From an uncultured Solibacteraceae bacterium (GTDB taxonomy: Bacteria > Acidobacteriota > Vicinamibacteria > Vicinamibacterales > SCN-69-37), in contig CAYYFE010000015.1 in assembly GCA_964471115.1 (NCBI GenBank), positions 13,818 through 77,817 on the forward strand: a stretch of DNA of 64,000 nt, read 5' to 3'. The notes below the pieces were generated by a model, which saw only the letters and a list, made by a program, of their open reading frames with translations, had not been told where the DNA came from and searched no databases. A program made the position numbers and the translations under genes. Shown in pieces: positions 3 through 63,151 of this stretch; positions within the stretch are counted from its first letter, which is position 1; every line of letters starts with the position of its first letter.

Positions 3-1286
3 GCGTTCGCCGTCCGGTATCGCGCCTTCGGCTGGCACACCATCGTGATCGACGGCCACGACATCGCGGCCATCCGCGCGGCGCTGGCGGAAGCCCGTGG
101 CATGTCGGGCCGGCCGACGATGATCGTGGCGAAGACGCTGAAGGGGAAGGGCTGTTCAATCTTCGAGGACAAGGACAACTGGCACGGCAAACCCCTCAAG
201 AAGGGCGCCGAGGCCGACGCCGCCGTGGCCGAACTGCAGGCGCAGATGATTCCGACGTCCGACCCGGCGCCCGTGATTCGCAAGCCCGCCTCGCGTCGAT
301 CGGAAGGGCCGCTGCCGGACTTCGTCGCGGCCATGCCCGCGCCCGCCTACAAGGCCGGCGATCTGGTGGCCACGCGGGAAGCCTACGGCACGGCGCTGGC
401 CGCGCTGGGCGGCCTCGACGCTCGCATCGTCGCGCTGGATGCCGACGTGAAGAACTCCACCTTCAGCGAACGTTTCGAGAAGGTGTACCCCGAGCGGTTT
501 TATCAGACATTCATTGCCGAGCAGGCGATGATTGGCGTCTCGATGGGCCTGGCCAGCCGCGGCGCAATCGCGTTCCCGTCGTCGTTTGCGTGTTTCCTCG
601 AGCGCGGCGCCGACTTCATCCGCATGGCCGGCATCTCGATGCTCAACGTGAAGTTGTGCGGCTCACACGCCGGCATTTCCATCGGTGAAGACGGCCCGTC
701 GCAGATGGCGCTGGAAGACCTGGCCATGGCGCGCGCCGTGCCGAACTGCACCGTGTTGTATCCGTCGGATGCCGTTTCGGCCGAGCGCCTCGTGGCGGCG
801 GCCGCGGCCACCCATGGCCCGGTGTACATCCGCAGCTCGCGTCCCAAGACCCCGGTGTTGTACAGCGTGTCCGAGACGTTCCCGGTGGGGGGCTCGAAGG
901 TGCTTCGCCAGAGCGCGAAGGACGTGGCCACGGTCATCGGCGCGGGTGTCACGTTGCACGAAGCGCTCAAGGCGCACGACCTGCTGGCCAAGGACGGCAT
1001 CGCGATTCGCGTCATCGACGCGTACTCGGTGCAGCCCATCGATCGCGCCGGGCTCATCGCCGCAGGCAAGGCCACCGGCGGCCGGCTCATCGTCGTGGAA
1101 GATCACTACGCGCAGGGCGGCCTGGGCGACGCCGTGTCGGAAGCCGTCTGGGACCAGGGCTTCACCGTGCAGCGCCTGGCCGTCCGCGAGATCCCGCGCT
1201 CCGGCGGGCCCGAAGAACTGCTCGATCGCTACGGCATCTCCGCGTCCGCGATCGCGGCGCAGGTGGTGGCAAGGAGCGGCGAGTAG
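3..1286 (+). CDS. tkt: transketolase, C-terminal part (5' end lies upstream of the window)
   Basis: Frame 3 is open from base 3 (AFAVRYRAFGWHTIVIDGHD...), so the track start at 45 is internal. Transketolase pyrimidine-binding and C-terminal domain sequence is present (FIAEQAMIGVSMGLA, CGSHAGISIGEDGPSQMALEDLAMARA). Confidence 0.9.
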   Translation, partial: AFAVRYRAFGWHTIVIDGHDIAAIRAALAEARGMSGRPTMIVAKTLKGKGCSIFEDKDNWHGKPLKKGAEADAAVAELQAQMIPTSDPAPVIRKPASRRSEGPLPDFVAAMPAPAYKAGDLVATREAYGTALAALGGLDARIVALDADVKNSTFSERFEKVYPERFYQTFIAEQAMIGVSMGLASRGAIAFPSSFACFLERGADFIRMAGISMLNVKLCGSHAGISIGEDGPSQMALEDLAMARAVPNCTVLYPSDAVSAERLVAAAAATHGPVYIRSSRPKTPVLYSVSETFPVGGSKVLRQSAKDVATVIGAGVTLHEALKAHDLLAKDGIAIRVIDAYSVQPIDRAGLIAAGKATGGRLIVVEDHYAQGGLGDAVSEAVWDQGFTVQRLAVREIPRSGGPEELLDRYGISASAIAAQVVARSGE

Positions 1287-1307
1287 CGGCAAGTGGCGGC
1301 AAGTAGC
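1268..1307 (+). repeat. tandem decamer array, 4 units (GGCRAGKRGC)
   Basis: Read directly: ggcaaggagc ggcgagtagc ggcaagtggc ggcaagtagc. It spans the tkt stop codon and the tkt/ggt spacer. Confidence 0.85.
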
Positions 1308-1361
1308 GCGGCCGGATCTGCCGGCCGCGATCGAACGCCAGTGCTCTTGTATCATCCCCGG

Positions 1362-7509: not shown

Positions 7510-7515
7510 GGTGTA

Positions 7516-7571
7516 AAGGATAAGGGATAAGGGATAAGGGATCAGGGATCAGGGACAAGGGACCAGGGACC
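7516..7571 (+). repeat. tandem heptamer array, 8 units (AGGGAYN)
   Basis: aaggata agggata agggata agggatc agggatc agggaca agggacc agggacc, starting 7 nt upstream of the nadE start codon. Confidence 0.9.
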
Positions 7572-7587
7572 ATTTGGAACCGCTCCC

Positions 7588-7647
7588 AATGATCCCTGGT
7601 CCATTGTCCATGTCGCCCTTCCAATGATCCCTTATCCTTGATCCTTT
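7588..7647 (+). repeat. degenerate heptamer array in inverted orientation to 7516-7571
   Basis: caatgat ccctggt ccattgt ccatgtc gcccttc caatgat cccttat ccttgat. Its reverse complement has the GGAYNNN type of the left array. The inner units are near-complementary (ggaccagggacc vs gatccctggtcc). It overlaps the last codons of the upstream membrane-protein gene. Confidence 0.75.
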
Positions 7648-8591
7648 CGTAAATTCCGAATCCCTTCCGCCGCCGGGGAGTCGGGCCAGAGGGGCAGCGG
7701 AGCCGCGGTGTAGGTCGCGTGCGCGAGTTCGCCCTGGAAGAACACGATGAGCGACGCCGTCCACCAGAGGCTCGCCGCGACGCGCAGGACGATGTAGAGC
7801 ATGACGACGGTGACGTAGTAGTCGAGGCCCTCATCGCTGACCGGCGCGGCGCCGAACCAGAGGCGAATGACGACCACGGACGGCAACGCGCTCAGCGCGT
7901 ACAGGCCGGCCGTGCGCAGCGGGCGCCGGCGCATGAACCGAAGCCCCGCCATGAGGCCGCCGAGCGCGCTGTGGCGGTCCTCCACCACCATGCGAATGCG
8001 CGCGAAGTCGCCCGCCATCGCGACCAGGCCCAGCGCCGCCGCGAACATGAGATGCATCGACACTTGTACGACGAGCAGGTCGGTGCGGTCGGTCAGGCCC
8101 TGCGTCCGGTTCGCCATGACCGTGCCCAGCCACCAGGGCTGGGCATAGATAAGCAGCACCCACCAGGCCGGAGCCATCAGGACCGCCAGTCGAAGGAATC
8201 GCCAGAAATGGACGCCGCAGGCGGAGAAAAACGCCGCGGTGTACGTGGCGCGTCCTCGCGCGAAGCGATCGATGATGCCGCCGGAGAGAAACAACGACAG
8301 CGCCAGGGCGGCCAGTGCGGCGCCCATCGCCGCCGGCGCGGCGGGCGGCGTGCGATGGCCCAGCGCCAGCGCCCAGCCACCGTGCCACTGCCACATCAGG
8401 CGTTCGAGCGCGGTTCGCAGGCCGAGCCGGTCCGACATCGGCCCGAAGACGTCGCCGGCAAACGGCGCCAGCACGACCACCGCCAGCACCGCCAGTGCCA
8501 CACCCATCACCGGCGCCTGCCACACCCGCCGCCCGCCCTCGAGGAACGCGCCGAGGATGGTGGCTCGCTGCGTGGTGGGTGCACCGGTCAT
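7632..8591 (-). CDS. polytopic membrane protein, unknown function
   Basis: 319-aa ORF with several long hydrophobic segments (VMGVALAVLAVVVLAPFAG, LMFAAALGLVAMAG, VTVVMLYIVLRVAASLWWTASLIVFF). I recognise no family. Confidence 0.55.
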   Translation of the reverse strand: MTGAPTTQRATILGAFLEGGRRVWQAPVMGVALAVLAVVVLAPFAGDVFGPMSDRLGLRTALERLMWQWHGGWALALGHRTPPAAPAAMGAALAALALSLFLSGGIIDRFARGRATYTAAFFSACGVHFWRFLRLAVLMAPAWWVLLIYAQPWWLGTVMANRTQGLTDRTDLLVVQVSMHLMFAAALGLVAMAGDFARIRMVVEDRHSALGGLMAGLRFMRRRPLRTAGLYALSALPSVVVIRLWFGAAPVSDEGLDYYVTVVMLYIVLRVAASLWWTASLIVFFQGELAHATYTAAPLPLWPDSPAAEGIRNLRKDQG

Positions 8592-16322: not shown

Positions 16323-16416
16323 CATCAGGGCACAGGGCTCAGGTTGCAGGGCACAGGGGCGGACAACAGCACCTTCCGTCCCTGTGGCTTGTGACCTGTC
16401 GCCTGTAGCCTGCAGG
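16323..16416 (+). repeat. two heptamer arrays in inverted orientation (NNNCAGG x5, about 20 nt spacer, CCTGNNN x5)
   Basis: Left arm: catcagg gcacagg gctcagg ttgcagg gcacagg. Right arm: cctgtgg cttgtga cctgtcg cctgtag cctgcag. Perfect complementary core CACAGGG (16352-16358) / CCCTGTG (16380-16386). It fills the atpF-eamA spacer. Confidence 0.8.
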
Positions 16417-16421
16417 CGCGT

Positions 16422-17348
16422 TTGTCCCGGGTCGATGTCCTGCTGGTGCTGATGGTCCTCATCTGGGGGGCCAACTTCAGCGTCATCAAGTGGGCATTCG
16501 TCGAAATCCCGCCGCAGCCGTTTAACGCCCTTCGTCTGGTCATCGCGTCAGCCGTCTTCCTGGCGGCCATCCGGTGGGCCCGCCGCCGCGCCCAGGCCGG
16601 CGACGCCGTCTCGTCGATCCTGCACACGCCCCATCCGCTGACGCGCCGCGACCGGCGTGACCTCGTCTGGCTCGGCCTGGTGGGGCATCTCGGGTATCAG
16701 TTCTTCTTTGTCGGCGGCGTGGCGCTGTCCACCGCGTCGAACGCCGCCCTGATCGTCGGCACGACGCCGACGGTGCTGGCCGTGGTGTCGGCGCTGCTGG
16801 GCCGCGAACGCATCAGCGGTTTCCACTGGGCCGGCGCGTTGCTGGCGGTCACCGGTATTGCGTTCGTCGTCGGGCCGGGCGCCTCGTTTGGCGGCGCGAC
16901 GTGGCGCGGCGACCTCATGGTGATGTGTTCGGTGGCCTGCTGGACCACGTTCACGCTGGGATCGGCGCGGCTCATCGAACGCCATTCGCCGTTGTACGTC
17001 ACGGGCATGACCATGGTCTACGGCGGCATCCCCTATGTGGCGCTGGCGCTGCCGGCCATCCTGCGGGTGGACTGGGCGGCGGCCTCCTTCGGCGCGCTCG
17101 TCGCACTGGTGCTGTCGGCGCTGCTGGCGCTCAACCTGGCCTACGTGATCTGGTACACGGGCGTGCAACGCCTGGGCCCGGCGCGGACGTCGATTTACTC
17201 GAACGGTGTGCCCATCGTCGCGATGTTCGTGGCGGCCATCTGGCTGGGCGAGTCTTTGACCTGGACGAAAATCGCCGGCGCCTCGGCGGTGCTGGGCGGG
17301 GTGGCGCTGACCCGGGTGGGGCGACGGCTGTTGCTGCAGTCAAGCTGA
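16422..17348 (+). CDS. EamA/DMT-family transporter
   Basis: Ten-TM-like profile with two EamA-like halves. N-terminus VLMVLIWGANFSVIKWAF. Confidence 0.85.
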   Translation: MSRVDVLLVLMVLIWGANFSVIKWAFVEIPPQPFNALRLVIASAVFLAAIRWARRRAQAGDAVSSILHTPHPLTRRDRRDLVWLGLVGHLGYQFFFVGGVALSTASNAALIVGTTPTVLAVVSALLGRERISGFHWAGALLAVTGIAFVVGPGASFGGATWRGDLMVMCSVACWTTFTLGSARLIERHSPLYVTGMTMVYGGIPYVALALPAILRVDWAAASFGALVALVLSALLALNLAYVIWYTGVQRLGPARTSIYSNGVPIVAMFVAAIWLGESLTWTKIAGASAVLGGVALTRVGRRLLLQSS

Positions 17349-17458: not shown

Positions 17459-18435
17459 TGAATAATCCGGATAAGGCCATGTCGCACTACTACAGCCAGC
17501 ACGCGACGGCGTTACGGGCCGAACTGGGCCGCGCGATCACGCGCGAAGAGATGCGGGTGCTGCACACCAAACATCCGTGGCGCCACTTCGTGGTCGCCGC
17601 GCGGCAGTTCCTGATCCTGGCGCTGACCACGTGGGCGCTGATCCGGTTCGAGGCGTGGTACGTCTGGCTGCCGCTGGCCGTCGTCCAGGGCTTCACGGTG
17701 TTCAACTTCACGGTGCTGCTGCACGAAGTGCTGCACCACCTGGTGTTCAACAAGCCGCACAAGCGCATCGAACGCGCGCTGGGTTTCCTGTACGCGATCC
17801 CCAGCGGCATCTCCCCGTCGCAGTTCACGCGGTGGCATCTCGATCATCACGCCGAGCTCGGGTCCGATACCGACGACCCCAAGCGGCACCATCTCTCACC
17901 GAAGCGGAACGCCCGCTGGTACAAGCTGCTGTACGCCACGCCGGCGTTGTTTCCGATCTACTTCCGGGCGGCGCGCCTCGAGTCGTCGACCTACCCGGAG
18001 GCCCTGCAGCGCCGCATCGGGTGGGAGCGCCGCGCCGCGATCCTGTTTCACCTGAGTGTGCTGGGCGGTCTGTGGTGGGCCTTCGGCGGCGCCGCGGCGT
18101 TTCGCGCCCACGCGTTTCCGGTGTTCTTCATCTTCCCGATCGCCTTCACGCTGAACCGCCTGGGCCAGCACTACGACATTGACCCGAGCGACCCGGCCAA
18201 GTGGGGCACACTCATGCGCAGCCACTGGTTCTGGAACTTCGCGTTCCTCACCTCGAACCTCCACCTGGAGCACCACTACTTTCCAGGCGTGCCGTTTTAC
18301 CACCTGCCCGCATTGCAGCGCGCGCTCGGCCCCTTCTACGCCCGAAAAGGGATGCGGTGGCAGACCTATCGCGGCCTGTTGTACGGCTGGATCATCCAGA
18401 ACAAGCGACCGCACTCGAACTGGTCACTGGTCTGA
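17446..18435 (+). CDS. membrane fatty-acid desaturase family protein
   Basis: Three His boxes: HEVLHH, HLDHHAELG, HLEHHYFPGVPFYHLP. Start ambiguous (17446, 17455 or MSHYY at 17479). Confidence 0.85.
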   Translation: MSFMVNNPDKAMSHYYSQHATALRAELGRAITREEMRVLHTKHPWRHFVVAARQFLILALTTWALIRFEAWYVWLPLAVVQGFTVFNFTVLLHEVLHHLVFNKPHKRIERALGFLYAIPSGISPSQFTRWHLDHHAELGSDTDDPKRHHLSPKRNARWYKLLYATPALFPIYFRAARLESSTYPEALQRRIGWERRAAILFHLSVLGGLWWAFGGAAAFRAHAFPVFFIFPIAFTLNRLGQHYDIDPSDPAKWGTLMRSHWFWNFAFLTSNLHLEHHYFPGVPFYHLPALQRALGPFYARKGMRWQTYRGLLYGWIIQNKRPHSNWSLV

Positions 18436-18923: not shown

Positions 18924-20066
18924 TCAGGCCAGCTTGCTCAGGCGAATCTGCGCCAGCGTAAAGACCAGTGTGAGCGCGCAGACCGACACGATGGACCACG
19001 CCATGAATTGCTGGTACGCGGTGCGTCCCATCAGGTCGAAAAGTGACAGGCCCATGACCATCAGCGCTGCGCCGGAAGCCCAGCGCCAACCGGTGCCCAG
19101 TTCGCGCCAGCGGTCGATGATCAGGACCACGGCCGGCGTGCCCAGCAGCAGCACGTAGTCCCAACCCTGCGGTGAAATCAGAGGAATGAGCAGCAGGAGC
19201 AGGGCAAACTCGAGGTAGTCGGGGTCGCTCACCGTGGGCCGGCGCCGCCAGGTGGCCGCCGCCACGGCCAGCAGCAGTCCGACCGTGAGGGTGGCCAGGG
19301 CCGCGGCCGTCGTGCCCGGGCCCAGCCACTTCGCCCACATCGCCGCCATCGAGATGTTGTCGGCGCCGAGCAGGTTGGGCGCGGTCGACGACGACACGAT
19401 GTGCCACCAGCCCTGGAGCTGATCGAGGTTGCCGGCCCAGCCATACAGGATCAGCGGCAGCAGGAGCCCCCCTGCGATGACGGCCGCACCCACCACGCCG
19501 GCGGCCACGCCGTACGACGCCGCCAGCCACGGCAGCAGGATGAGCGCGTACGGCTTGACGAACACCGCCAGCCCGATGCTGACGGCCGCCAGCCTGGGGG
19601 CGTCCAGCTGCAACGCGCCGAGACCGGCGACCAGCAGGACACCCAGGAGCAGGTTGGACTGGCCCAGCGTCAGCTCGTGGGCGTAGAACTTCGCCATCAG
19701 GACGAGCGTCAGCACGATGATCGTGCGGTCCGACCAGCGGCGCGCCGGCAGCGCCACGACCGACCAGCGCAGCAGGATGACCAGGCACGCGCACGACAGG
19801 GCGAACCAGCCGACGCGCGCGGCGTCGCGGCCGAGGATGGCCCACGGGGCCATCGCCACGGCGAATGCCGGCATGTACTTGAACGTATAGTGGCCGTCCG
19901 CCTCCTGGTACAGGGGTTGGGCGGCGAGGGCTCGGTGGCCGGCGGTGCGATACACCTCGAAGTCGACCATCTCCTGGCTGACCCGCAGGTTGTAGATCGT
20001 CAGCGCCAGGGCGATCAGGGCGACCGGAAGGATCAGCGCACGCAGGTGGGCCGGCAGTCGGGCCAT
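18924..20066 (-). CDS. GT87/DUF2029-like polyprenol-phosphate-dependent membrane glycosyltransferase
   Basis: EMVDFEVYRTAGHRAL...GHYTFKYMPAFAVAMAPW near the N-terminus, then about 10 TM segments. Confidence 0.7.
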   Translation of the reverse strand: MARLPAHLRALILPVALIALALTIYNLRVSQEMVDFEVYRTAGHRALAAQPLYQEADGHYTFKYMPAFAVAMAPWAILGRDAARVGWFALSCACLVILLRWSVVALPARRWSDRTIIVLTLVLMAKFYAHELTLGQSNLLLGVLLVAGLGALQLDAPRLAAVSIGLAVFVKPYALILLPWLAASYGVAAGVVGAAVIAGGLLLPLILYGWAGNLDQLQGWWHIVSSSTAPNLLGADNISMAAMWAKWLGPGTTAAALATLTVGLLLAVAAATWRRRPTVSDPDYLEFALLLLLIPLISPQGWDYVLLLGTPAVVLIIDRWRELGTGWRWASGAALMVMGLSLFDLMGRTAYQQFMAWSIVSVCALTLVFTLAQIRLSKLA

Positions 20067-25504: not shown

Positions 25505-27082
25505 ATGACCGCCACCACCTTCAGTCTCGCCCACCTGCTGGACCAGACCGCGCGACTCACCCCGTCACGCGAAGCCGTCGTGATGGGGCAGACGCGCCTG
25601 ACCTGGGCGCAGCTGGACGCCATGGTGAGTCAGGTCGCCAACGGCCTCCGCAGCCTGGGGCTGCGCCCCGGGGATCACATCGCGTTGTCGTGCCCCAACG
25701 TGCCGTATTTCCCGATGGCGTATTACGGCATCCTCCGGATGGGCGGCGTGGTGGTGCCCCTCAACGTGTTGCTCAAGCCGCGCGAGATTGCGTACCACCT
25801 CAAGGACGCGCAGGCCAGGGCGCTGCTGGTGTTTGAAGGCACGGCGGAACTGCCGATGGCGACGATGGCGCGGGCCGCCTGTGACGAGGCCGGCCTGTCG
25901 ATGCCGGTGATCGTGATGACCGCCAATCCCGCGGCGCCCAGTCCGGTCGACCGCGCGCTGTCGTTTGGCCAGCTCGTCCACGGACAAGCCCCGCGGTGCG
26001 CCACCCATCCGGCCGCACCCGGCGACACGGCGGTCATTCTCTACACCTCCGGGACGACCGGACAGCCCAAGGGCGCCGAACTGACGCACTTCAACATGGT
26101 GACCAACGCGCTGGTGTCGCGCGACATGTTGTCGCCGCTGGTCGACAGCCCGATCGCCGGCACCACCCGCCACCTGATCACGCTGCCGTTGTTCCACTCG
26201 ACCGGGCAGACCGCGCAGATGAACGCCAGCGTGGCTGGCGCCTCCACGATGGTACTGATGCCTCGGTTCGAGGCGGCGGGCGTGCTCAAGACGATGGTCG
26301 ACGAGCGGATTACGTGCTGGGTGGGCGTGCCCACGATGTACTGGGCGCTGCTTCAGCATGCGCGCCAGCACGGCGTCGACACGTCGGCCATCGCGGCGCG
26401 GCTGCGCGTCTGTGCGTCGGGCGGCGCGCCGATGCCGGTCGCCGTGTTGCAGGATTTCGAGCAGACCTTCGGGGTGCGCGTGCTCGAGGGGTACGGCCTG
26501 TCCGAGACGGCGCCGGTCGCCTGTTTCAACCAGGTGTTCCTGCCGTCCAAACCCGGCACCGTCGGCTTGCCCGTCCTCGGCTGCGAGGTGCGCGTCGTCA
26601 ACGATCAGGACGAACCGCTGCCCTCCGGTGAACGCGGCGAAATCGTCATCCGCGGCCACAACGTGATGAAGGGGTACTTCAACCGCCCGGCCGACACGGC
26701 CGAGGCGCTGCGGGGCGGGTGGTTCCACACCGGCGACATCGGCGTCATCGATGCCGATGGCTTCGTGTCGATTGTCGATCGCAAGAAGGACATGGTGCTG
26801 CGCGGCGGCATGAACGTGTATCCACGCGAGATCGAGGACGTGTTGATGACGCACCCGGCGGTGTCGCTGGCGGCCGTCATCGGCGTGCCCGACGAACGCC
26901 TGGGCGAAGAAGTGAAGGCGTATGTCGTGCTCAAGCCGGGCGCGACGCTGACGCCCGAGGCACTGGTGGACTGGAGCCGCGAACAACTGGCCGCCTACAA
27001 GTACCCCCGGATCGTCGAGATTCGGGAGTCGCTGCCGGTCGGGCCCACCGGCAAGGTGTTCAAGCGGGCGTTGCGCGAGTAG
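25505..27082 (+). CDS. long-chain fatty-acid--CoA ligase (AMP-dependent synthetase)
   Basis: AMP-binding motif ILYTSGTTGQPKGAELTH, with WFHTGDIG...DRKKDMVLRGGMNVYPREIE later. Confidence 0.9.
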   Translation: MTATTFSLAHLLDQTARLTPSREAVVMGQTRLTWAQLDAMVSQVANGLRSLGLRPGDHIALSCPNVPYFPMAYYGILRMGGVVVPLNVLLKPREIAYHLKDAQARALLVFEGTAELPMATMARAACDEAGLSMPVIVMTANPAAPSPVDRALSFGQLVHGQAPRCATHPAAPGDTAVILYTSGTTGQPKGAELTHFNMVTNALVSRDMLSPLVDSPIAGTTRHLITLPLFHSTGQTAQMNASVAGASTMVLMPRFEAAGVLKTMVDERITCWVGVPTMYWALLQHARQHGVDTSAIAARLRVCASGGAPMPVAVLQDFEQTFGVRVLEGYGLSETAPVACFNQVFLPSKPGTVGLPVLGCEVRVVNDQDEPLPSGERGEIVIRGHNVMKGYFNRPADTAEALRGGWFHTGDIGVIDADGFVSIVDRKKDMVLRGGMNVYPREIEDVLMTHPAVSLAAVIGVPDERLGEEVKAYVVLKPGATLTPEALVDWSREQLAAYKYPRIVEIRESLPVGPTGKVFKRALRE

Positions 27083-27153
27083 CGGCGAGTGGCGGCGAGT
27101 GGCGGCGAGTGGCGGTGAGTAGCGGTGAGTAGCGGCGAGTAGCGGGGAGTGGA
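27075..27153 (+). repeat. tandem decamer array, about 8 units (GCGAGTRGCG)
   Basis: gcgagtagcg gcgagtggcg gcgagtggcg gcgagtggcg gtgagtagcg gtgagtagcg gcgagtagcg gggagtgg. It spans the ligase stop codon and the whole spacer up to the HD gene. Confidence 0.9.
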
Positions 27154-27157
27154 CATC

Positions 27158-27721
27158 ATGGAGCGGCAACTGGCGTTCATTCGTGAGGCCGATCGGTTGA
27201 AGACGGTCCTGCGCCGGACGTCGGTGGGCGACCGATCCCGGCTCGAGAATTCGGCGGAGCATTCGTGGCACCTGGCGCTCATGGCCCTGGTGTGGGCCGG
27301 ACAGGCGCCGCCTGGTGTCTCGGTGGATCGTGTGGTGCGCATGCTCGTGGTGCACGACCTGGTCGAGATTGACGCGGGCGATACGTTTGCGTTTGACGCC
27401 GCGGCCAACGGCGACAAGGCCGAGCGCGAGCGCGCGGCCGCCGACCGCCTGTTTGGAATGCTGCCCGCGGACGTGGGGGCCGAACTCCGGGGGCTGTGGG
27501 AGGAGTTCGAGGCCGGCGACAGCGCCGACGCGCGGATGGCCAACGCGCTCGACCGGTTCGGCGCGCTCGTGCAGAACACGCAGCAGCCCGACGGCGGGAC
27601 CTGGGCGGCCCACGGCATCTCGCGCGAGGCGATCCTGCGCCGGATGGATCCCATTCGCGAGGGGTTGCCGGCTCTGTGGCCGTATGTGATGTCGGTGGTG
27701 GACGAGGTCAGTCGCAGGTAA
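27158..27721 (+). CDS. HD-domain phosphohydrolase (YfbR-like 5'-nucleotidase family)
   Basis: ENSAEHSWHLALMAL ... VVHDLVEIDAGDT ... metal-ligand pattern. Start at ATG 27158, or GTG 27149 inside the repeat. Confidence 0.8.
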   Translation: MERQLAFIREADRLKTVLRRTSVGDRSRLENSAEHSWHLALMALVWAGQAPPGVSVDRVVRMLVVHDLVEIDAGDTFAFDAAANGDKAERERAAADRLFGMLPADVGAELRGLWEEFEAGDSADARMANALDRFGALVQNTQQPDGGTWAAHGISREAILRRMDPIREGLPALWPYVMSVVDEVSRR

Positions 27722-36771: not shown

Positions 36772-37803
36772 TCAGGAGAGGTCGTAGGTGTAGCAGCCGG
36801 GCAGGACCAGCGCCCGGGTGACGCCGGGCACGCGGCTGAACGACAGACTCTCGGGCGCCTGGTTGCCCGTGCCGTCAAACGTGACGACCCGCCGCTTGTC
36901 GCCGTACTGGTCGTAGACGTACGTGAAGGGCGCGGCCAGGCTGACCCAGAGGTGGCCGTTCGGATCGAGCGCCGCCGTGCGAATCATCGGCGGGATCACC
37001 GGGTACGTCCCGTCCCCCGTCTTGCGCGTGGGCCACGTCGTCGGCAACGTCTGCAGGTACGGATCGAGATGGGATCCCTCGATGTGGCGCTCGAAGACCA
37101 GTTGCCCCGCGGCGTCGTACTTCTGGAACTTCGGCACGCCGGTCTGAAAGACAAACGTCACGCTGCCGTCACGACCGCGCAACGCCAGGCCCACGTTGAG
37201 CGCCATGTGCACGTTGCGGTCGTGTTCGTGGCCCGTCGCTCGCAGCCGCCCGATCTGCCGGATCGGATTGCCGTTGAGGTCCAGCTCGGTGATCAGCGCG
37301 CCGTTGTCCGGCTCGTTGAGCAGGAATCCCGATCCGGTGAACTGCAGCGCGCCCACGCCGTTGAGGATGACCGCGCCCATGATGAGCCGGGGCGCCACCA
37401 CGCCCGGCCGCAGAAACGCGCGAATCTGCGCGCCGGCCGCGGTGAACACCTGGATTCGCTCCTGACGGAAGGGCGCATCCGAAATCGCATACGCGCCATC
37501 GTCGGCCAGGCTGAGGGCGCCCGGCTGCAGCGTCTCGCCCTTTTCGAGCCCGGCCTGCACCAGCCGCGTGAGACGTGTCCCGGTGCGGTCCACCGCGTAC
37601 AACGTGTGCGCGCGACGGTCGAGCAGCAGGTACCGCCCGGAGGCGTCCTGCACGAATCCGATGGGATGAATCAGCGAATCACAGACCTGCTGCGACAGGC
37701 CGCCGGTGGGGCGCAGGACTTCGACGGGCAGCTGCGATGCCGTGAGTGTGGTCGACAGGAAAAGTGCGGCGCCCCACAGACCATGGCGCCCTACGCAAGT
37801 CAC
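36772..37803 (-). CDS. secreted hypothetical protein, possibly beta-propeller (NHL-like)
   Basis: The ORF is followed 3 nt downstream by the DUF885 gene. Repetitive beta-rich sequence. Start uncertain: GTG 37803 lies at the edge of the decamer array. Confidence 0.45.
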   Translation of the reverse strand: MTCVGRHGLWGAALFLSTTLTASQLPVEVLRPTGGLSQQVCDSLIHPIGFVQDASGRYLLLDRRAHTLYAVDRTGTRLTRLVQAGLEKGETLQPGALSLADDGAYAISDAPFRQERIQVFTAAGAQIRAFLRPGVVAPRLIMGAVILNGVGALQFTGSGFLLNEPDNGALITELDLNGNPIRQIGRLRATGHEHDRNVHMALNVGLALRGRDGSVTFVFQTGVPKFQKYDAAGQLVFERHIEGSHLDPYLQTLPTTWPTRKTGDGTYPVIPPMIRTAALDPNGHLWVSLAAPFTYVYDQYGDKRRVVTFDGTGNQAPESLSFSRVPGVTRALVLPGCYTYDLS

Positions 37804-37877
37804 TCGCCGCCACCCGCCGCTACTCGCCGCCACTTGCCGCCACTTGCCGCCACTCGCCGCCACTCGCCGCTACTCGC
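37801..37877 (-). repeat. tandem decamer array, about 7.7 units, same unit as 27075-27153 but on the minus strand
   Basis: Plus strand reads cactcgccgc cacccgccgc tactcgccgc cacttgccgc cacttgccgc cactcgccgc cactcgccgc tactcgc. It fills the spacer between two minus-strand genes. Confidence 0.9.
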
Positions 37878-39967
37878 TAATACCTTGCTGTCTCAAGCAC
37901 CGCCGCCAGCACATCGGCCGAGCCGGGCAGGATGACCTCTTCCAGATCGGGGCAGTAGGCGACCGGGCAGTCCATCGCCGCCACACGGCGCACCGGCGCG
38001 TCGAGGTATTCGAACAGGTCGCTCGCGGTGCGGGCGGCCAGCTCGGCGCCGAAGCCGCAGGTCAGCTGATCTTCGTGCGCGATGACCAGACGGTTCGTCG
38101 CCTTGACCGCGTCGGCGATCGCGTCGAAGTCGTACGGCATGATCGTGCGCAGGTCGATCACCTTCACGCTCACGCCCTCTTTTTCCGCCTGCTGCGCCGC
38201 CAGCAGGGTGCGCTGCACCAGCGCGCCCCAGGTGACCACCGTCACGTCCGTGCCCTCGCGCCGCACCGCCGCCTTGCCGAACGGAATCATGTATTCCGCG
38301 CCGGGGTACTCGCCCTTGTTGTACGTCTGGCGGTACAGGTGTTTGTGCTCGAGGAACATCACCGGGTCGTCGCACCGGATGGCCGTGCGCAGCAGCCCGG
38401 CCGCGTCCTGTGCGTTCGACGGGAACGCGATGCGGATGCCGGGGCAGTGCGCAAAGATGCTTTCGCCCGACTGGCTGTGGTACGGCGCGCCGCCGCGCAG
38501 GTACCCGCCAATCGCCGTGCGCACCACCATCGGGCACGAGAAGAAGTTGCCCGACCGGTACCGCATCATCGACATCTCGTCGCGCAGCTGCATCATCGCG
38601 GGCCAGATGTAGTCGAAGAACTGAATCTCGACGATGGGTTTGATGCCGCGCGTGGCCATGCCGACGCCCCGGCCGACGATGTTGGCCTCCGCCAGCGGCG
38701 CGTTGAACACGCGCGTGCCGCCGTACGCCTTCTGCAGGCCGTGCGTCACCTTGAACACGCCGCCCTTGCCCTGGACCTGCGCCAGGTTGGCCTCGTGCGT
38801 GGCATCCGCCACGTCTTCGCCGAAGACGACGATGCGCGGGTTGCGCGCCATTTCATCCTTCATCGTGCGGTTGATGGCGGCCACCATCGTGTCGGGTTTG
38901 CCCTCGGGCTGCGCCGGCGTGTCAAACGCCGCGCCGGCCGGATCCACGTCCGGTGAATACACGTACAGGCCGGCCGTCTCGCGCGCGGGTTTGGGCGCCT
39001 TGATGGCCGCGTCGGCCGCGGCGTTGATCGTGGCGTCCACGTCTTTCGCGATGGCCGCCAGATCCTCGTCGGTGGCCAGGCCCTCGGCCTTGAGCCACGC
39101 GGCGAACTTCGGCAGCGGGTCGCGCGTCGCTTCCTCCGCGCGTTCGGCCGGCGTCTTGTACAACTTCTCGTCGTCGGAGAGCGAGTGGGAGTACGGCCGG
39201 ATGACCTTGGCGTGAATCAGCGCCGGTCCCTTGCGGCTGCGGCAGTAGTCCAGCGCCTGCGCGGCCGTGCGGTAGCTCTCCATGAAGTCGGTGCCGTCGC
39301 AGCGGAACACGCCGAGGCCCGGGAAGCCTTCCACCAGCTTCGACATGTCGCCGCCGGGCGTCTGCACCTCGACCGGCACCGAAATGGCGTAGCCGTTGTC
39401 CTCAATCATGAAGAGGACGGGCAGCTTGGCGACGCAGGCCGCGTTGAGTGACTCCCAGAACTCGCCTTCGCTGACCGTGCCATCGCCGACGGACACGTAC
39501 GTGACTTCGTCGGGTTGGTACTTCGACTCGCGATCGGGAATGTCGGTGACGCGTTCATACAGCCGGCCGGCTTCCGCGCAGCCCACGGCCTGCAGGCACT
39601 GGGTGCCCGTCGGGCTGCCCTGCGAGACGATGTTGAGCCGCTTGTGGCCCCAGTGCGAGGGCATCTGGCGGCCGGCGCTGTTGGGATCGTCGGCCGCGCC
39701 CACCGCGCTCAGGAACATCTCGAGCGGCGTCATGCCCAGCGCCAGACACAACGCGCGGTCGCGGTAATACGGGTAGAACCAGTCGTGCCCGGGCTTCATC
39801 TGCATGCCCGTGGCCGTGAGGATGGCCTCGTGGCCGGCCCCGCTGATCTGGAAAAAAATCAGGCTCTGATTCTTGAGCTGAATCTCCTTGTCGTCGATGC
39901 GCCGCGAGGTCAGCATCGTCCGATAGGCCGTCAGCAGGTCATCCCGGGTCAGTCCATCGTGGGCCAT
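37877..39967 (-). CDS. fused E1 alpha+beta component of a 2-oxoacid dehydrogenase (TPP-dependent)
   Basis: Start re-picked at [12 protein letters not shown]. Alpha part with TPP motif [18 protein letters not shown]. Beta part [36 protein letters not shown]. Confidence 0.85.
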
Positions 39968-44318: not shown

Positions 44319-45301
44319 GCCGGCCCCTGAACCCTGGACCCTCGGACCCTGGACCCTGCGTACGCTTCAAACGTCATTCCCTCGGCGCCCAGTTCCTTCG
44401 TGGCGTACGTCAGGAAGGCGCCCAGCCGTTCGTAGAAGGCGTCCAGCTCGGCCTCGGTGCGGTTGTACGGACTGCCGCCGACGATGGCCTCCGAGGAATG
44501 GAAGAGCAGGTTGAGAATCGGGACGCCGGCGTCGACCAGCTGCCGTCCCAGCGCGCACATGTCCTGCGTCGAGCTGTACGACGGGCGCAGCCAGCGGACC
44601 TGCGCGACCCCCGACAGACGCAGCAGGCGCTTGGTGGTGTAGTTGAACGGCGCGCGCGCGTAGGCGTGCGCCAGCCACGCCGGGACGCGCCGGTTGAGTG
44701 CGGCCGAAATCGGCAGCTCCAGCACCTGGCTCGAGCCCGGCCGCGTCGCGTTGTCGTAGGCGAGGAAGTACGGCGTCAACGGGGCCTCGACGAAGTCGGG
44801 CCCGCCCTTGTGCGCCTCGTAGAACAGGGGAGCCACGCTCGAGTCGACCAGGTAGCCGGCGCGTTCGAGTGACGAAACGTGGGAGGCCGAAAATCCGAAG
44901 CGGCCCGAACGATACGACACCGGCCGCACGCCGACCGCGGCGGTGATCGCGTCGGTCAACGACGCCAGCTGGGCGTCGAATTGATCGAGGGGCAGCTGCA
45001 GGGCGTACGGGTGCCGGCGGATGTCCGCCTCGGTGCACGGCGGCGTTTCCCACGCGTGATGATGCGCGCCGATTTCACAGTCGCCCGCCTCGTGCAGCCG
45101 GCGCAGCACCTCGGCCGAGCGGGGATCGGTGGCGACCGGATGGGTGATGACGTACGTCGGCCGGACGCCGTGACGCCGGAAGAACTCGTGCAGCCGATCG
45201 AGCGCGTAGATGTTCTCGAAGCGCTGGTGCAGGCGCGCCTGGGCGTCCCACTGGTTGTCGCCTTCGGTGTCGATTGCGACCAGCAGGGCGGGCCCGGTCA
45301 T
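44315..45301 (-). CDS. polysaccharide deacetylase-like protein (WalW-type)
   Basis: LLVAIDTEGDNQWD...VRPTYVITHPVA...EIGAHHHAWETPP resembles the divalent-metal deacetylase fold. ATGA overlaps at both ends. Confidence 0.7.
   Translation of the reverse strand: MTGPALLVAIDTEGDNQWDAQARLHQRFENIYALDRLHEFFRRHGVRPTYVITHPVATDPRSAEVLRRLHEAGDCEIGAHHHAWETPPCTEADIRRHPYALQLPLDQFDAQLASLTDAITAAVGVRPVSYRSGRFGFSASHVSSLERAGYLVDSSVAPLFYEAHKGGPDFVEAPLTPYFLAYDNATRPGSSQVLELPISAALNRRVPAWLAHAYARAPFNYTTKRLLRLSGVAQVRWLRPSYSSTQDMCALGRQLVDAGVPILNLLFHSSEAIVGGSPYNRTEAELDAFYERLGAFLTYATKELGAEGMTFEAYAGSRVRGSRVQGPA
44329..44357 (+). repeat. tandem 7/8-mer array (GGACCCT type), 4 units
   Basis: gaaccct ggaccct cggaccct ggaccct. 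It encodes the last residues (GSRVRGSRVQGPA) of the minus-strand deacetylase gene and sits just upstream of the GT4 start. Confidence 0.85.
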
Positions 45302-46343: not shown

Positions 46344-47204
46344 CTATTCCAGAACGTATTCCATATTACTGATGAAGATGTCGCGCGTGGCTTCGCTGTC
46401 GCGCAGCCAGCGCCCCAGCGGGCCGGGCAACCGGCGCACCGTCGCCGTCGAGTGCAGTTCCTCGCGGACGATGCGCAGGCCGGCGTCGGCGATCTGCCGG
46501 CGCAGGCGCGTCACCGTGACCAGTTCAAGCAGGTCGTCTTCCTTCCAGATGCCATTGCGCGCGTCCCGGATGAACGAGTTCTCGTGGGCGGGCTCCTTCA
46601 GCGTCCACGGCGCGTACCGCGCCAGCAGCCGGAACGTGCGGAACGCGATCCAGCGGCCCGTGATCAGGTGCAGCGGGATCTGAATCTTCAGGCGCGGCAG
46701 GTGCGCGCCGGCAAACGACAGGTACGGCGCGGTCGACAGCAGGCACCGCGCGCCGGGAGCCATCACGCGCCGGATCTCCCGCAGGTACAGCGGTGCGTCG
46801 GCGACGTGTTCGATCACGGCGTGTGACAGGACGAGATCAAACGACGCGTCGGCAAACGGCAGATACATGCCGTCGGCCTGCAGGAAGTGCAGGTGCGCCA
46901 GACCGCGTTCGCGCGCCAGCCGGACGCCGGCATCGCCGAACCGGTTGATGGGATCGATGCCCACGACGAACCGCGCGTGTTCGGCCAGTGACAGCGGCAT
47001 GCCGCCGCCGCCGCACCCGGCATCCAGCACGCGCCCTTCCACCTGCACGCCGGCGCGGTCGAGGAAGGCCAGCACCTTGGCGGACCGGTAGTACTCGAAA
47101 AGCGCGTAGTCGTACTCGGACCGGAACCGGCGGTCCGCATGCTGCTTGATCAGGGCGTCATTTATCTCGCGCACGCGGGTCGGGTCCGTCGGGAAACTTG
47201 TCAA
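46344..47204 (-). CDS. class I SAM-dependent methyltransferase
   Basis: Motif I VLDAGCGGGGM. Start uncertain (TTG 47204 or GTG 47174); it overlaps the upstream gene's 3' end. Confidence 0.8.
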   Translation of the reverse strand: MTSFPTDPTRVREINDALIKQHADRRFRSEYDYALFEYYRSAKVLAFLDRAGVQVEGRVLDAGCGGGGMPLSLAEHARFVVGIDPINRFGDAGVRLARERGLAHLHFLQADGMYLPFADASFDLVLSHAVIEHVADAPLYLREIRRVMAPGARCLLSTAPYLSFAGAHLPRLKIQIPLHLITGRWIAFRTFRLLARYAPWTLKEPAHENSFIRDARNGIWKEDDLLELVTVTRLRRQIADAGLRIVREELHSTATVRRLPGPLGRWLRDSEATRDIFISNMEYVLE

Positions 47205-48990
47205 TGAGTGCAGCCCGGTCGCGGCCCGGCGTCTCCTGGACGTCGAACTCCATCACGAGTCGTCGCTGCGGGTAGTGCGCGAGCACGTCGAGGATGACGT
47301 CACCCTCGTAGCCTGGCTCGGGCCGTCCGTCGGCTTCCGTATAGGAGAGTATATAGCGCGCATCGTCGCGCGAGAGCCGGTCCGCGTAGTTGCCGAACCC
47401 CCGGCCCACGAAGACCGGGCGGATGCGATTCTCGAGCGCGAGGCCGTTGGCCAGCTTGCCGTGCACGAGGGTGCCGTCGGGCAACACTGCCCCCAGCGCC
47501 CGCGACGCGTCGACGTTGAGGTACGTGCGGGACGCGGCCCACCGGCCGAACAGCGTCAGGTCGGTCGCGACGGTCGCCACCACGACGAAGGCCAGCGCCA
47601 CGGGCGAGGGACGCCAGCCGGCCAGCCAGTCCGCGTAGCGCGCCCGGTACCACCAGGCCGCCAGCCCGGCCGCGACCGCAACCGCCGCCGAGACCCGGAC
47701 GGTCTGCTTCAACTCGCCCGCCAGGACGTCGTCGAGCCAGACCAGGCGCAGCAGACTGCCGGCGGCCAGATACGCCAGGGGCACCGCCGCGACGGCCACC
47801 ACCACGCCCCCCCATCGATCCATCGATCCATCGATCCATCGATCCATTGATCCATCGATCCATCGATCCATGGTTGTCATGCCGGCCAGTGCGATGAGCG
47901 CCGGCACGAACATCACGTAGCGACGTTCGTTGCCCGCGTCATGCACGATCAGTTCGAGCAGCCCGATGGCCAGCCAGAGCACGGCCAGCCGGGCCGCGGG
48001 CGGCGCGGCGGGCCAGCGTCGCACCACCGCGAGTGTCGTCACGGCCGCGACCAGCAGCACCAGCCACATGCGCGAGAACACGCCATGCACGACGGGCAGC
48101 CAGCTGGCGCGCTGGACGAAGTCGGCAAGGCCGTAGCTCGGCTTGCGCGTGACCGTCATCTCCCAGTTGTAGAACTGGAATTCGGTCCAGTACGGCACGA
48201 CGAACATCGCCAGCACGACGGCGGTGGCGAGTACGAGACCCGCGAGGGTGGCGAGGTGGCGAGATGGCGAGGTGGCGAGGTGGCCGGATGGCGAGGCGGC
48301 GAGGTGGCGGGATGAGCACCACCATGCGGTGGCCATCTCCAGTACGAGCGCGGCGATGAAAAACGCCGCGGCGGCCTTCGTGAAAAACGCGGCCACCGCC
48401 GCCGCGCCGGCGATGACGCCGAGCCAGGGGCGGCGCGCGCTGCCGGCGTACGCGGCCCAGCTCACCGTCATCAACGCCGTCATGGTGGACTCCATCAGCG
48501 CCGCGCGGTTCCACATGACGAACGTGAAACTGGTGGCCAGCAGCACGCCGCCCAGCAGCGCGGCCCGGCGCCCAGCCACGGCCAGCAGGCCGGCCATCAG
48601 CGCCGCCACCGCCACGACACCGGAGATCGCCGGCACCAGTCGCGCCTGCCACGTGCCGACGCCGAAGGCCTCAAACGACGCCCACTCGAGCGCGGTGAAC
48701 ACCGGCGCGATGAACACGGGGTTCCAGGCGTCGGTCCGCCACTCGCCCCACAACGCGGCGTTGCGCGCATTGTGCGTCCACGCACCTTCGTCGTGCCAGA
48801 CGATCCCGGTGTGCCCCACCGGAGGATCCGCCGTCAGCCAGACGCCGCGCAGGGCGATGGCGAGCAGCAGCAGGCCGGCGATGGCCGCCAGTGTCCGCAC
48901 GGACGAGGCTCCGCACTCCGCACTGCGCTCCGCGCACTCCGCACTTCGCACTCCGCACTGCGCACTGCGCACTCCGCACTGCGCACTCAT
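47158..48990 (-). CDS. GT-C fold, ArnT/PMT_2-like membrane glycosyltransferase carrying three in-frame repeat arrays
   Basis: Start fixed by an ATGA overlap with the upstream gene (48987-48990). First-loop acidic motif IVWHDEGAWTHNARNAALWGEW. At least 10 TM segments. Soluble C-terminal domain. Confidence 0.75.
   Translation of the reverse strand: MSAQCGVRSAQCGVRSAECAERSAECGASSVRTLAAIAGLLLLAIALRGVWLTADPPVGHTGIVWHDEGAWTHNARNAALWGEWRTDAWNPVFIAPVFTALEWASFEAFGVGTWQARLVPAISGVVAVAALMAGLLAVAGRRAALLGGVLLATSFTFVMWNRAALMESTMTALMTVSWAAYAGSARRPWLGVIAGAAAVAAFFTKAAAAFFIAALVLEMATAWWCSSRHLAASPSGHLATSPSRHLATLAGLVLATAVVLAMFVVPYWTEFQFYNWEMTVTRKPSYGLADFVQRASWLPVVHGVFSRMWLVLLVAAVTTLAVVRRWPAAPPAARLAVLWLAIGLLELIVHDAGNERRYVMFVPALIALAGMTTMDRWIDGSMDRWIDGSMDRWGGVVVAVAAVPLAYLAAGSLLRLVWLDDVLAGELKQTVRVSAAVAVAAGLAAWWYRARYADWLAGWRPSPVALAFVVVATVATDLTLFGRWAASRTYLNVDASRALGAVLPDGTLVHGKLANGLALENRIRPVFVGRGFGNYADRLSRDDARYILSYTEADGRPEPGYEGDVILDVLAHYPQRRLVMEFDVQETPGRDRAALIDKFPDGPDPRARDK
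47812..47872 (+). repeat. tandem octamer array (CCATCGAT), about 7.5 units, in frame inside the GT-C gene
   Basis: ccatcgat x3, ccattgat, ccatcgat x2, ccatgg. Translated on the minus strand as MDRWIDGSMDRWIDGSMDRW. Contains six GATC and five ATCGAT sites. Confidence 0.9.
48247..48311 (+). repeat. tandem octamer array (GGTGGCGA type), about 8 units, in frame inside the GT-C gene
   Basis: ggtggcga ggtggcga gatggcga ggtggcga ggtggccg gatggcga ggcggcga ggtggcgg. Translated on the minus strand as SRHLAASPSGHLATSPSRHLAT. Confidence 0.9.
48911..48987 (+). repeat. tandem heptamer array (SSGCACT), 11 units, forming the first about 26 codons of the GT-C gene
   Basis: ccgcact ccgcact gcgctcc gcgcact ccgcact tcgcact ccgcact gcgcact gcgcact ccgcact gcgcact. 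Minus-strand translation MSAQCGVRSAQCGVRSAECAERSAECG. Confidence 0.9.
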
Positions 48991-63081: not shown

Positions 63082-63137
63082 CCGCACTGCGCACTGCGCA
63101 CTCCGCACTGGGCACTGCGCACTGGGCACTCCGCACT
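63082..63137 (+). repeat. tandem heptamer array (SSGCACT), 8 units
   Basis: ccgcact gcgcact gcgcact ccgcact gggcact gcgcact gggcact ccgcact. It lies in the spacer between two minus-strand genes, 15 nt past the radical SAM stop codon. Confidence 0.9.
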
Positions 63138-63151
63138 GCTTATGACGCTCG

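Follow-up and report, generated by a model that had tools for sequence, protein, structure and literature searches.

The DNA analysed here is a 64,000-nt stretch of contig CAYYFE010000015.1 from an uncultured Solibacteraceae bacterium (assembly GCA_964471115.1), and this stretch, taken at its full length, is referred to as the window. It contains three tandem arrays of a decamer, each at the 3' end of a gene: array 1 belongs to a dxs-like transketolase gene, array 2 to a long-chain acyl-CoA ligase gene and array 3, on the opposite strand, to an E1 dehydrogenase gene, and all three genes stop with TAG. An earlier annotation of this DNA, the original prediction, had named these three sites, had read one shared unit on the sense strand of all three and had set each array at or within the upstream stop codon. 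All of this is borne out by Tandem Repeats Finder (TRF), which was used as the array caller, and by the positions of the stops (Table 1). On the strand of the flanking genes the three arrays read GGCGAGTRGC, with the minor variants GGTGAG, GGCAAG and GGCGGG.

The contact of the arrays with the stop codons is partly automatic, because TAG-bearing units close every sense frame: stops occur in all three sense frames within 30 nt, and all frames of the antisense strand are free of stops. A further claim, that each array bridges the stop of one gene and the start of the next, stands for arrays 2 and 3 and falls for array 1. Array 2 occupies the 75-nt spacer between the ligase gene and an HD-domain hydrolase gene and ends 7 nt before the ATG of the latter. 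Its mutated last unit, GGGGAG, resembles a Shine-Dalgarno (SD) sequence and may act as one; the strongest anti-SD pairing within the array is -12.1 kcal/mol, and the mini open reading frames (ORFs) of the array stop 16-40 nt short of the ATG. Array 3 occupies the whole 73-nt spacer between the E1 gene and a gene for a signal-peptide protein. The most likely start of this downstream gene is a GTG formed by the last repeat unit, since it is in frame, is followed by a signal-peptide-like N-terminus and matches the GTG ACN (GTG ACG) start of the orthologue on contig L043. Another candidate, ATG 37784, was ruled out as being out of frame. A mini-ORF of 17 codons runs through array 3, and its TGA overlaps the GTG start (GTGA) but not the upstream stop. 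Exact-protein look-up of the ligase and E1 ORFs returned no record with the starts chosen.

Array 1 is a 3'-untranslated-region array rather than a stop-to-start bridge, because a hairpin comes directly after it. The array starts 16 nt ahead of the dxs-like stop and covers the last 6 codons and the stop itself. The hairpin has a 9-bp stem of G+C pairs and is likely a 3'-end or terminator hairpin, although it lacks a U tract and a consensus scan found no T-tract terminator there. The next start, ATG 1362, lies 53 nt farther on, behind a TATCAT hexamer that resembles a -10 element. From this ATG a single ORF of 985 aa extends over positions 1362-4319, combining PD40/tricorn-like N-terminal domains with a complete gamma-glutamyltranspeptidase domain; it may be a fusion, or two genes without a stop between them.

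Table 1. Features at the three decamer-array junctions of the window
Feature	Position	Strand	Basis or detail
Decamer array 1	1268..1308	+	TRF period 10, 4.1 copies, 83% matches, score 61
Array 1 units	GGCAAGGAGC GGCGAGTAGC GGCAAGTGGC GGCAAGTAGC	+	read from sequence
dxs-like transketolase ORF	45..1286	+	Pfam Transket_pyr/Transketolase_C
dxs-like gene TAG stop, within unit 2 of array 1	1284..1286	+	ORF 45..1286, stop map
Hairpin CGCGGCCGG-AUCUG-CCGGCCGCG, directly after array 1	1307..1329	+	RNA fold; 9-bp G+C stem, no U tract
Decamer array 2	27075..27150	+	TRF period 10, 7.6 copies, 92% matches, score 110
Long-chain acyl-CoA ligase	25505..27082	+	Pfam AMP-binding
Ligase TAG stop, within unit 1 of array 2	27080..27082	+	sequence
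GGGGAG, mutated last unit of array 2 (putative SD-like site)	27144..27149	+	8 nt upstream of ATG 27158
HD_3 hydrolase ATG start (187 aa)	27158..27160	+	Pfam HD_3; identical protein on record
Decamer array 3	37801..37877	-	TRF period 10, 7.7 copies, 89% matches, score 119
E1 dehydrogenase (alpha/beta fusion)	3' end at 37877	-	Pfam E1_dh/Transket_pyr/Transketolase_C
E1 TAG stop, abutting first unit of array 3	37877..37879	-	minus-strand sequence
GTG, most likely start of the gene after array 3, from last unit (GGCGAGTGAC)	37801..37803	-	frame analysis

What distinguishes these sites from the background is their tandem arrangement, as single decamers are at chance level (32 in the window against 31.6 expected) and 20 dinucleotide shuffles of the window yielded no array at all (period 6-12, at least 4 copies), compared with 11 TRF rows, representing 10 arrays, in the real sequence. 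Array 2 is not an assembly artefact, because two independent Logan assemblies agree on the sequence of its distal part; both end inside the array. The two Logan short-read contigs, L001 and L002, which come from the same organism, have their end, at position 1, exactly within array 2. Arrays of this kind fragment short-read assemblies, and gene callers place starts inside them (e.g. L062 15966).

The history of the two bridged junctions can be followed in relatives that share the gene order. The nearest homologues of the HD protein are only 74% identical, and the nearest homologue of the ligase, 85% identical, is on contig L062 of a metagenome-assembled genome (MAG) labelled Vicinamibacterales (GCA_050247015.1). 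The gene order of L062 is that of the window (cytochrome b, ligase, HD, DcuC, penicillin amidase), and on the opposite strand it likewise carries the 345-aa gene, E1, rhomboid and MurJ. The NCBI labels of the syntenic MAG contigs L057 and L062 conflict, Acidimicrobiia in one case and Vicinamibacterales in the other, and at least one of these bins is probably misclassified. An early placement in Acidimicrobiia, taken from one named HD homologue, was given up in favour of Vicinamibacterales because of the ligase homologue and its full synteny. At both orthologous junctions L062 has degenerate homologous decamer arrays in the same orientation. After its ligase there is a 34-nt spacer, GACGCGGTAAGG GGCGGCGAGA GGCGGCGATA GG, with about two decamer units in the same phase, and after its E1 gene the sequence continues as TAG GCAAGGGGCG GCACGGGGCG CCAGGGAGCG GCAGGGTGGCA GCAAGAGGCG..., which TRF calls at period 10 with 5.3 copies and 73% matches. 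Since homologous arrays are present at both junctions, the arrays predate the split of the two species, and those of the window are recent expansions that have been made uniform. L043 and L057 had at first suggested that the orthologous junctions of relatives lack decamers, and hence that the arrays are not conserved; the closer L062 contradicts this.

The same two junctions differ widely in length and content. The ligase-to-HD spacer measures 75 nt in the window (7.6 decamers) and 34 nt in L062 (about 2 units); in L068 the HD gene overlaps the ligase stop (ATGA), in L064 HD is absent and the ligase is followed by penicillin amidase after 150 nt containing an 8-mer array, in L065 a 130-aa ORF other than HD follows after 12 nt free of arrays, and in L057 and L043 the gene upstream of HD is cytochrome b. 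The spacer between E1 and the next gene is 73 nt long in the window (7.7 decamers) and 35 nt in L062 (the degenerate array of 5.3 copies); it holds a 36-mer repeated 5.9 times with a hairpin in L068, a single hairpin within 34 nt in L057, a 33-mer repeated 2.2 times in L043 and, in L065, a hairpin core flanked by 9-mer arrays; in L064 the two genes abut (TAA ATG). The terminal codons of the ligase, CGC GAG TAG, are the same in L062 and thus ancestral; the E1 stop is TAG in five orthologues, TAA in L064 and TGA in L068. These junctions are hotspots for tandem repeats at which the repeat sequence turns over. The comparison shows that the decamer arrays are real, that they are lineage-specific and share ancestry in two species, and that they have widened junctions which relatives keep tight. 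No copy-number variation was seen among the samples of the L043 species.

Some repeats of the relatives are composite. In L065 a dispersed element occurs after three different stops (17640-17775, 18232-18329 and 19326-19478), always in the sense orientation; its conserved core of about 40 nt, GGGCGAAGTCCGCCGTAGCTCCGCAGGAGCGGAGGTGGATGG, contains a CTCCGC/GCGGAG hairpin and is flanked on either side by GTAGGTGGC 9-mer arrays. Another composite element is found in L064 (3596-3745 and 10079-10408), after the stops of the ligase, cupin and rhomboid genes and each time sense; it consists of (AATCTGR)n, a palindromic core (CGATTGTCGACAATCG after the ligase, degenerate at the other two) and (AATCGGS)n, and in a convergent spacer of this contig two copies face each other. 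The E1-to-next-gene junction of L068 carries an array (16841-17052) of a 36-bp unit present 5.9 times with 96% matches, each copy with a GGCACCCC...GGGGTGCC hairpin, and the gene caller absorbed this array into the N-terminus of the downstream ORF.

The orientation of the arrays bears on whether they are under any constraint. Three copies alone are no significant evidence, as three of three in one orientation gives a binomial p of 0.25, and this figure is what neutral, microsatellite-like drift would allow, in which orientation is unconstrained and contacts with stops and starts result from chance and from sense units that contain stops. A broader survey was made with TRF arrays of period 6-12 and at least 3 copies in the window and its syntenic relatives, using curated gene calls for the window and supplied calls elsewhere; arrays were counted as post-stop when they lie after a stop or in a co-directional junction, and as skewed when the absolute G-C skew is at least 0.2. 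The post-stop arrays of this clade show a strong bias towards sense G-richness: 14 of the 15 skewed ones are G-rich on the sense strand (p about 0.001), and the bias holds outside the decamer family (11/12, p=0.006). The sense-G-rich families are unrelated by sequence, comprising AGTGCGS, GGGTCCA, CAATGAGG, GAATCGGG, GCGTAGGTG/GTAGGTGGC and AATCTGG. The sole exception lies in L065, at the far side of a convergent spacer that is wholly occupied by the array of the other gene. Coding-region arrays are mixed (3 sense-G-rich, 4 sense-C-rich), and in the array-free spacers of L066 and L068 the sense skew runs from -0.24 to +0.36, with a mean of about zero.

Neutral drift retains some support, in that TAG units shut all sense frames automatically, a related 8-mer family is present in both orientations in L043, and sporadic arrays of the decamer in unrelated taxa are not clearly oriented. 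Pattern scans for three consecutive units returned 13 loci in 185,579 species genomes, 27 in Joint Genome Institute (JGI) metagenomes and 2 in viral contigs, 42 in all, each sporadic, in unrelated taxa and in no genome with multiple copies. With gene strand called from GC3 (the G+C content of third codon positions), these loci show only a weak trend of about 15 sense to 6 antisense (p=0.08), and L041, from an unrelated organism, has (GGCGAGTAGC)5 antisense between two co-directional, minus-strand genes. Another of the sporadic loci resembles the window: L036, a 1-kb metagenome contig of 71% G+C, reads ...LRR TAG, four units, GGGGAG and a lipoprotein-like start, the architecture of the window, and its array is a probable fourth copy of the decamer family. 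A protein search for array-encoded peptides, (GEWRRVAASG)n in sense and (ATRRHSPPLA)n in antisense, gave no candidates. Against drift stands the bias across unrelated families within the clade, with coding arrays and ordinary spacers unbiased; moreover, an antisense array after an existing stop would be detectable, and none is seen apart from that convergent-spacer far side. We therefore regard unconstrained drift as quite improbable. The original prediction had argued from strand-matched placement for a function at the level of RNA or transcription. A constraint at that level gains support once the arrays of L062 and the bias of post-stop arrays are added; the three copies do not carry it by themselves, and a positive function is not demonstrated.

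An orientation imposed at the level of DNA can be set against the same survey. A period of 10 is close to the helical turn, and the motif is G-rich and strand-asymmetric, as would suit phased sites for a nucleoid or regulatory protein, or recombination- and replication-oriented signals like Chi or KOPS (FtsK-orienting polar sequences). However, sister arrays at the same positions have periods of 7, 8, 9, 33 and 36, and array orientation follows gene strand, flipping with it within 100-700 bp (L064 10145 vs 10234; L065 17636 vs 18295). The GC skew of the window likewise tracks gene direction, and between arrays 2 and 3 it makes no switch like that of an origin or terminus. A replication-linked orientation is ruled out by the short-range flips together with this behaviour of the GC skew, and a DNA-level element appears extremely unlikely.

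As RNA, the two strands of the arrays differ sharply. The sense RNA of arrays 2 and 3 has 55-56% G and 16-19% C and not one YC dimer in 76-77 nt, while the antisense RNA has 55-56% C, 16-19% G and 19-20 YC dimers in the same length. Sense RNA folds no better than its shuffles (z 0.3-0.5), and antisense RNA is markedly unstructured for array 2 (z=+2.15) and not for array 3 (z=+0.35). The suggestion that the arrays form a G-rich structure is not supported, as the sense folds are no better than those of shuffles and none of the three decamer arrays has a canonical G-quadruplex (G4) motif, (G3+ N1-7)x4, but only GG runs. G4-aware folding left array 2 unchanged and added a marginal two-tetrad element in arrays 1 and 3. 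The scans found neither a consensus promoter nor a terminator-like site at any of the three arrays, and the Rfam 15 covariance models gave no match at gathering score on either strand of the whole window. A terminator-like match at 37778-37765 was judged spurious, as it lies inside the coding region downstream of array 3.

These properties leave some room for a positive cis-element on the mRNA, acting as a tract that retains terminating ribosomes or 30S subunits, or as a standby site, so that the downstream cistron would be translated efficiently across a spacer of 73-75 nt, or else as a two-quartet RNA G4 or a binding site for an oligomeric RNA-binding protein that would tune expression or stability. 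Against the generic 3' tail of 16S rRNA, the sense arrays have mean pairing energies of -4.3 to -6.7 kcal/mol, compared with -3.35 kcal/mol for background 12-mers, and antisense arrays do not pair. The GGGGAG unit precedes ATG 27158, the mini-ORF of array 3 ends on the downstream GTG, and arrays are kept at two junctions in L062. Several sister arrays, namely (GGGGAATC)n, (GGGTCCA)n and the E1 array of L062, do have canonical G4 motifs on the sense strand. But the anti-SD affinity is a trivial outcome of G-richness, since any G-rich sequence would pair in this way; the decamers of the window have no canonical putative quadruplex sequence, and G4-aware folding adds little. Furthermore, the units are wholly different between species and loci, which leaves no conserved binding motif; array 1 is followed by no coupled gene; and relatives keep the same gene pairs overlapping or abutting without an array. 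A dedicated element on the mRNA is thus unlikely.

The functional strand could instead be the antisense one, which would provide a Rho utilization (rut) site against backwards transcripts, that is, a polar insulator that silences antisense or read-in transcription and is invisible in sense. Rut sites are stretches of 60-80 nt of single-stranded RNA, rich in C and poor in G, to which Rho binds through YC dimers (PMC6144790), and the antisense composition and YC content of arrays 2 and 3 fit this minimal description, as does the open structure of antisense array 2, though not that of array 3. In the convergent spacers of L064 and L065, where a sense-G-rich array follows each gene, read-through from one side would meet the opposite array as C-rich RNA. 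On the other hand, consensus scans found no antisense promoters nearby, sister families of low skew (AATCGGC, GTNCCGRA) would not act in this way, a benefit large enough to maintain the arrays is speculative, and a passive filter yields the same facts. Function residing in the antisense strand is therefore very unlikely in our estimate.

The explanation that we favour, with roughly even confidence, is that repeats made by slippage expanded tight operon junctions and persist as a tolerated, orientation-filtered spacer rather than as a sequence-specific regulatory element. They would have arisen when a short G-rich motif between the TAG stop and the next ribosome-binding site was multiplied by replication slippage or unequal exchange. 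As the comparison shows, junctions that overlap or abut in distant relatives have been enlarged to about 34 nt in L062 and to 73-75 nt in the window, and the arrays now bridge stop and start because they expanded formerly tight junctions. A filter would then act on the products: an untranslated intercistronic repeat of 70-120 nt may be tolerated only if it is harmless on the mRNA. In the C-rich orientation a spacer of this length would be polar, and in the G-rich orientation it would be invisible to Rho, since naked sense RNA that is C-poor and free of YC dinucleotides is not a Rho loading site and causes no polarity. The sense strand would be harmless also by the absence of a hairpin and by the TAG and TGA units that close all frames at any copy number. 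Ordinary spacers would be unskewed because they are too short to matter for Rho. Distal units may have been co-opted, as the SD-like GGGGAG in array 2 and as the GTG start in array 3, and these features, like the closing of frames, would be secondary consequences or co-options; the array may in addition tune coupling between cistrons. The data are accounted for equally well by such an orientation filter and by a dedicated function.

Several points weigh against this explanation. The 15 sites behind the orientation bias are not fully independent, as they include orthologous junctions and shared spacers, and the effective sample is nearer 9-10. L066 and L068 hold almost no short-period arrays, too few for an out-of-sample test. 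Sense G-richness is also seen in some arrays that follow terminal genes (L064 6056), although polarity should be of no consequence there. The decamer family itself consists of three copies within the window and the probable fourth on L036, and the spread of one unit to several loci is not accounted for. The persistence of arrays at two junctions in species 15% apart in protein could reflect positive selection rather than tolerance. Finally, the Rho filter is extrapolated from E. coli-type Rho biology to a different lineage and would hold only so far as that analogy does.

A stronger form of the idea is that this Vicinamibacterales-like clade has undescribed stop-anchored, transcription-oriented arrays that are selected for a composition rule, as polar insulators of operon junctions. 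Under such a rule the arrays would be G-rich and free of YC dimers in sense and C-rich in antisense, while their units turn over between species, from 10-mers in the window to 7-, 8- and 9-mers, sometimes around a small hairpin core, in relatives. In sense, Rho would not recognize them and they might also retain ribosomes; in antisense they would present a ready Rho loading site. We consider this rather unlikely.

Besides the decamers, this high-G+C genome has many other tandem-repeat families of short period (7-10 bp). TRF also reports heptamer arrays at 3651-3710, 7514-7572, 16326-16358, 44325-44358, 48909-48988 and 63083-63139 and octamer arrays at 47812-47871 and 48242-48314, and two of the families recur within the window, AGTGCGS (48909, 63083) and CTGGACC/GGTCCAG (3651, 44325). 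The AGTGCGG/AGTGCGC units, read in sense on the minus strand, are located at two minus/minus junctions: the array at 48909-48988 begins exactly where a TGA and an ATG overlap (ATGA) and could specify the first 27 residues of a PMT_2 gene product, and that at 63083-63139 begins 12 nt past the stop of a radical-SAM/SPASM gene. The junction from atpF to EamA has an array in three genomes (window 16326-16358; L043 1996-2044; L062 1-27) with different units, CAGGGCA at 4.7 copies in the window and, in L043 and L062, 8/16-mers belonging to the GTNCCGAA family, and appears to be a second positional hotspot with sequence turnover.

Other arrays lie in coding or divergent contexts. (CTGGACC)x8 at 3651-3710 is in frame within the gamma-glutamyltranspeptidase domain and codes for LDPGT/LDPGP repeats, just upstream of a TTS motif (GTTSF) that may hold the autocatalytic Thr, in which case the array would lie at the C-terminal end of the large subunit. 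(GGGTCCA)x4.7 at 44325-44358, sense on the minus strand and a canonical G4 motif, forms the C-terminal tail of a polysaccharide-deacetylase ORF that has an ATGA overlap with a GT4 glycosyltransferase gene. The array at 7514-7572 is telomere-like, with 7-8 copies of TAAGGGA/TCAGGGA, and has an inverted degenerate copy at 7590-7650; the pair occupies the divergent spacer between NAD synthase (minus) and a TonB-dependent receptor (plus) and could form a long hairpin, the first arm of which is a canonical G4 motif. Both 8-bp arrays, (CCATCGAT)x7.5 over 60 nt at 47812-47871 and (GCGAGGTG)x8.4-9 over about 72 nt at 48242-48314, are inside the ORF of a PMT_2-type membrane glycosyltransferase (minus, 47158-48990), and their lengths keep the frame open. 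Because a change of one unit would shift the frame, this is a possible phase-variable (contingency) gene.

Among known systems, the mycobacterial interspersed repetitive units (MIRUs) appear to be the closest analogue of the decamer arrays. MIRUs were reportedly described by Supply and colleagues in 1997, and they share one orientation relative to genes. Like them, arrays 2 and 3 separate genes of one direction whose counterparts in relatives overlap or abut, and all three arrays are sense. MIRUs are intercistronic tandem units in operons, thought to be co-transcribed, whose ends reach into the stop codon of one neighbouring gene and the start codon of the other; their copy number varies, and orthologous junctions of related genomes lack them (PMC3184786, PMC3635867). 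They are confined to Mycobacterium and have internal inverted repeats, small ORFs and a unit of about 40-100 bp (size from PMC3184786). The small ORF has a partial counterpart in array 3 alone, where a mini-ORF overlaps the downstream start. In contrast, the decamer unit is 10 bp long and has no inverted repeat, and the genome is Acidobacteriota-like, its closest relatives being MAGs labelled Vicinamibacterales, Acidobacteriota or Acidimicrobiia.

Other repeat classes share fewer traits with the arrays. In heterocystous cyanobacteria, short tandemly repeated repetitive (STRR) sequences of the 7-bp class form several lineage-specific families dispersed over many intergenic sites. The arrays are likewise dispersed, lineage-specific, short-unit and intergenic, but the decamer has a period of 10, the window has 69% G+C and its gene content is non-cyanobacterial; we know of no stop-codon anchoring or sense G-richness rule described for STRR. 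Repetitive extragenic palindromic (REP) sequences and bacterial interspersed mosaic elements (BIMEs) are also dispersed, oriented elements placed right after stops inside operons, and the hairpin cores flanked by arrays in L064 and L065 recall them, but REP function rests on a stable palindromic hairpin, which the decamers of the window do not have. Contingency loci share the slippage-prone short repeats with non-triplet periods, yet theirs are located in coding regions or promoters, whereas arrays 2 and 3 lie after a stop and array 1 spans one; with all frames closed and the arrays placed beyond a stop, gain or loss of units has no reading frame to shift.

Signals read from RNA fit no better. 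Rut sites and C>G bubbles resemble the arrays in being 60-80 nt of unstructured RNA with extreme C/G asymmetry, but on the sense strand of the arrays this asymmetry is inverted, and only the antisense transcript is rut-like. An intrinsic terminator would combine a hairpin with a U tract, and here a hairpin occurs only after array 1 and has none. In the (G/U)AG-repeat RNAs that proteins of the TRAP/HutP type bind, NAG triplets are spaced 2-3 nt apart for TRAP and 4 nt apart for HutP; in the decamer the GAG and UAG/UGG triplets are adjacent and then separated by 4 nt, with a 10-nt period. Copy number does differ at orthologous junctions between the window and L062 (7.6 vs about 2 units and 7.7 vs 5.3 units), as in variable-number tandem repeats (VNTRs). 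The arrays fit best among the VNTR-like intergenic repeat families, as a variant whose hallmark is a stop-anchored, transcription-oriented composition rule. Full-text literature searches found no description of such a rule, and literature searches found no papers on tandem repeats in Acidimicrobiia or Vicinamibacter.

The arrays could be used as VNTR markers to type strains in metagenomes. Should the bias reflect no more than a passive filter, they would be ordinary products of slippage and of modest significance. An orientation rule that held genome-wide would be natural-history evidence for compositional selection on long untranslated intercistronic RNA in a poorly studied phylum, most likely caused by Rho-dependent polarity, and post-stop sense-G-rich arrays would offer a signature of transcription direction and operon structure in uncultured Acidobacteriota.

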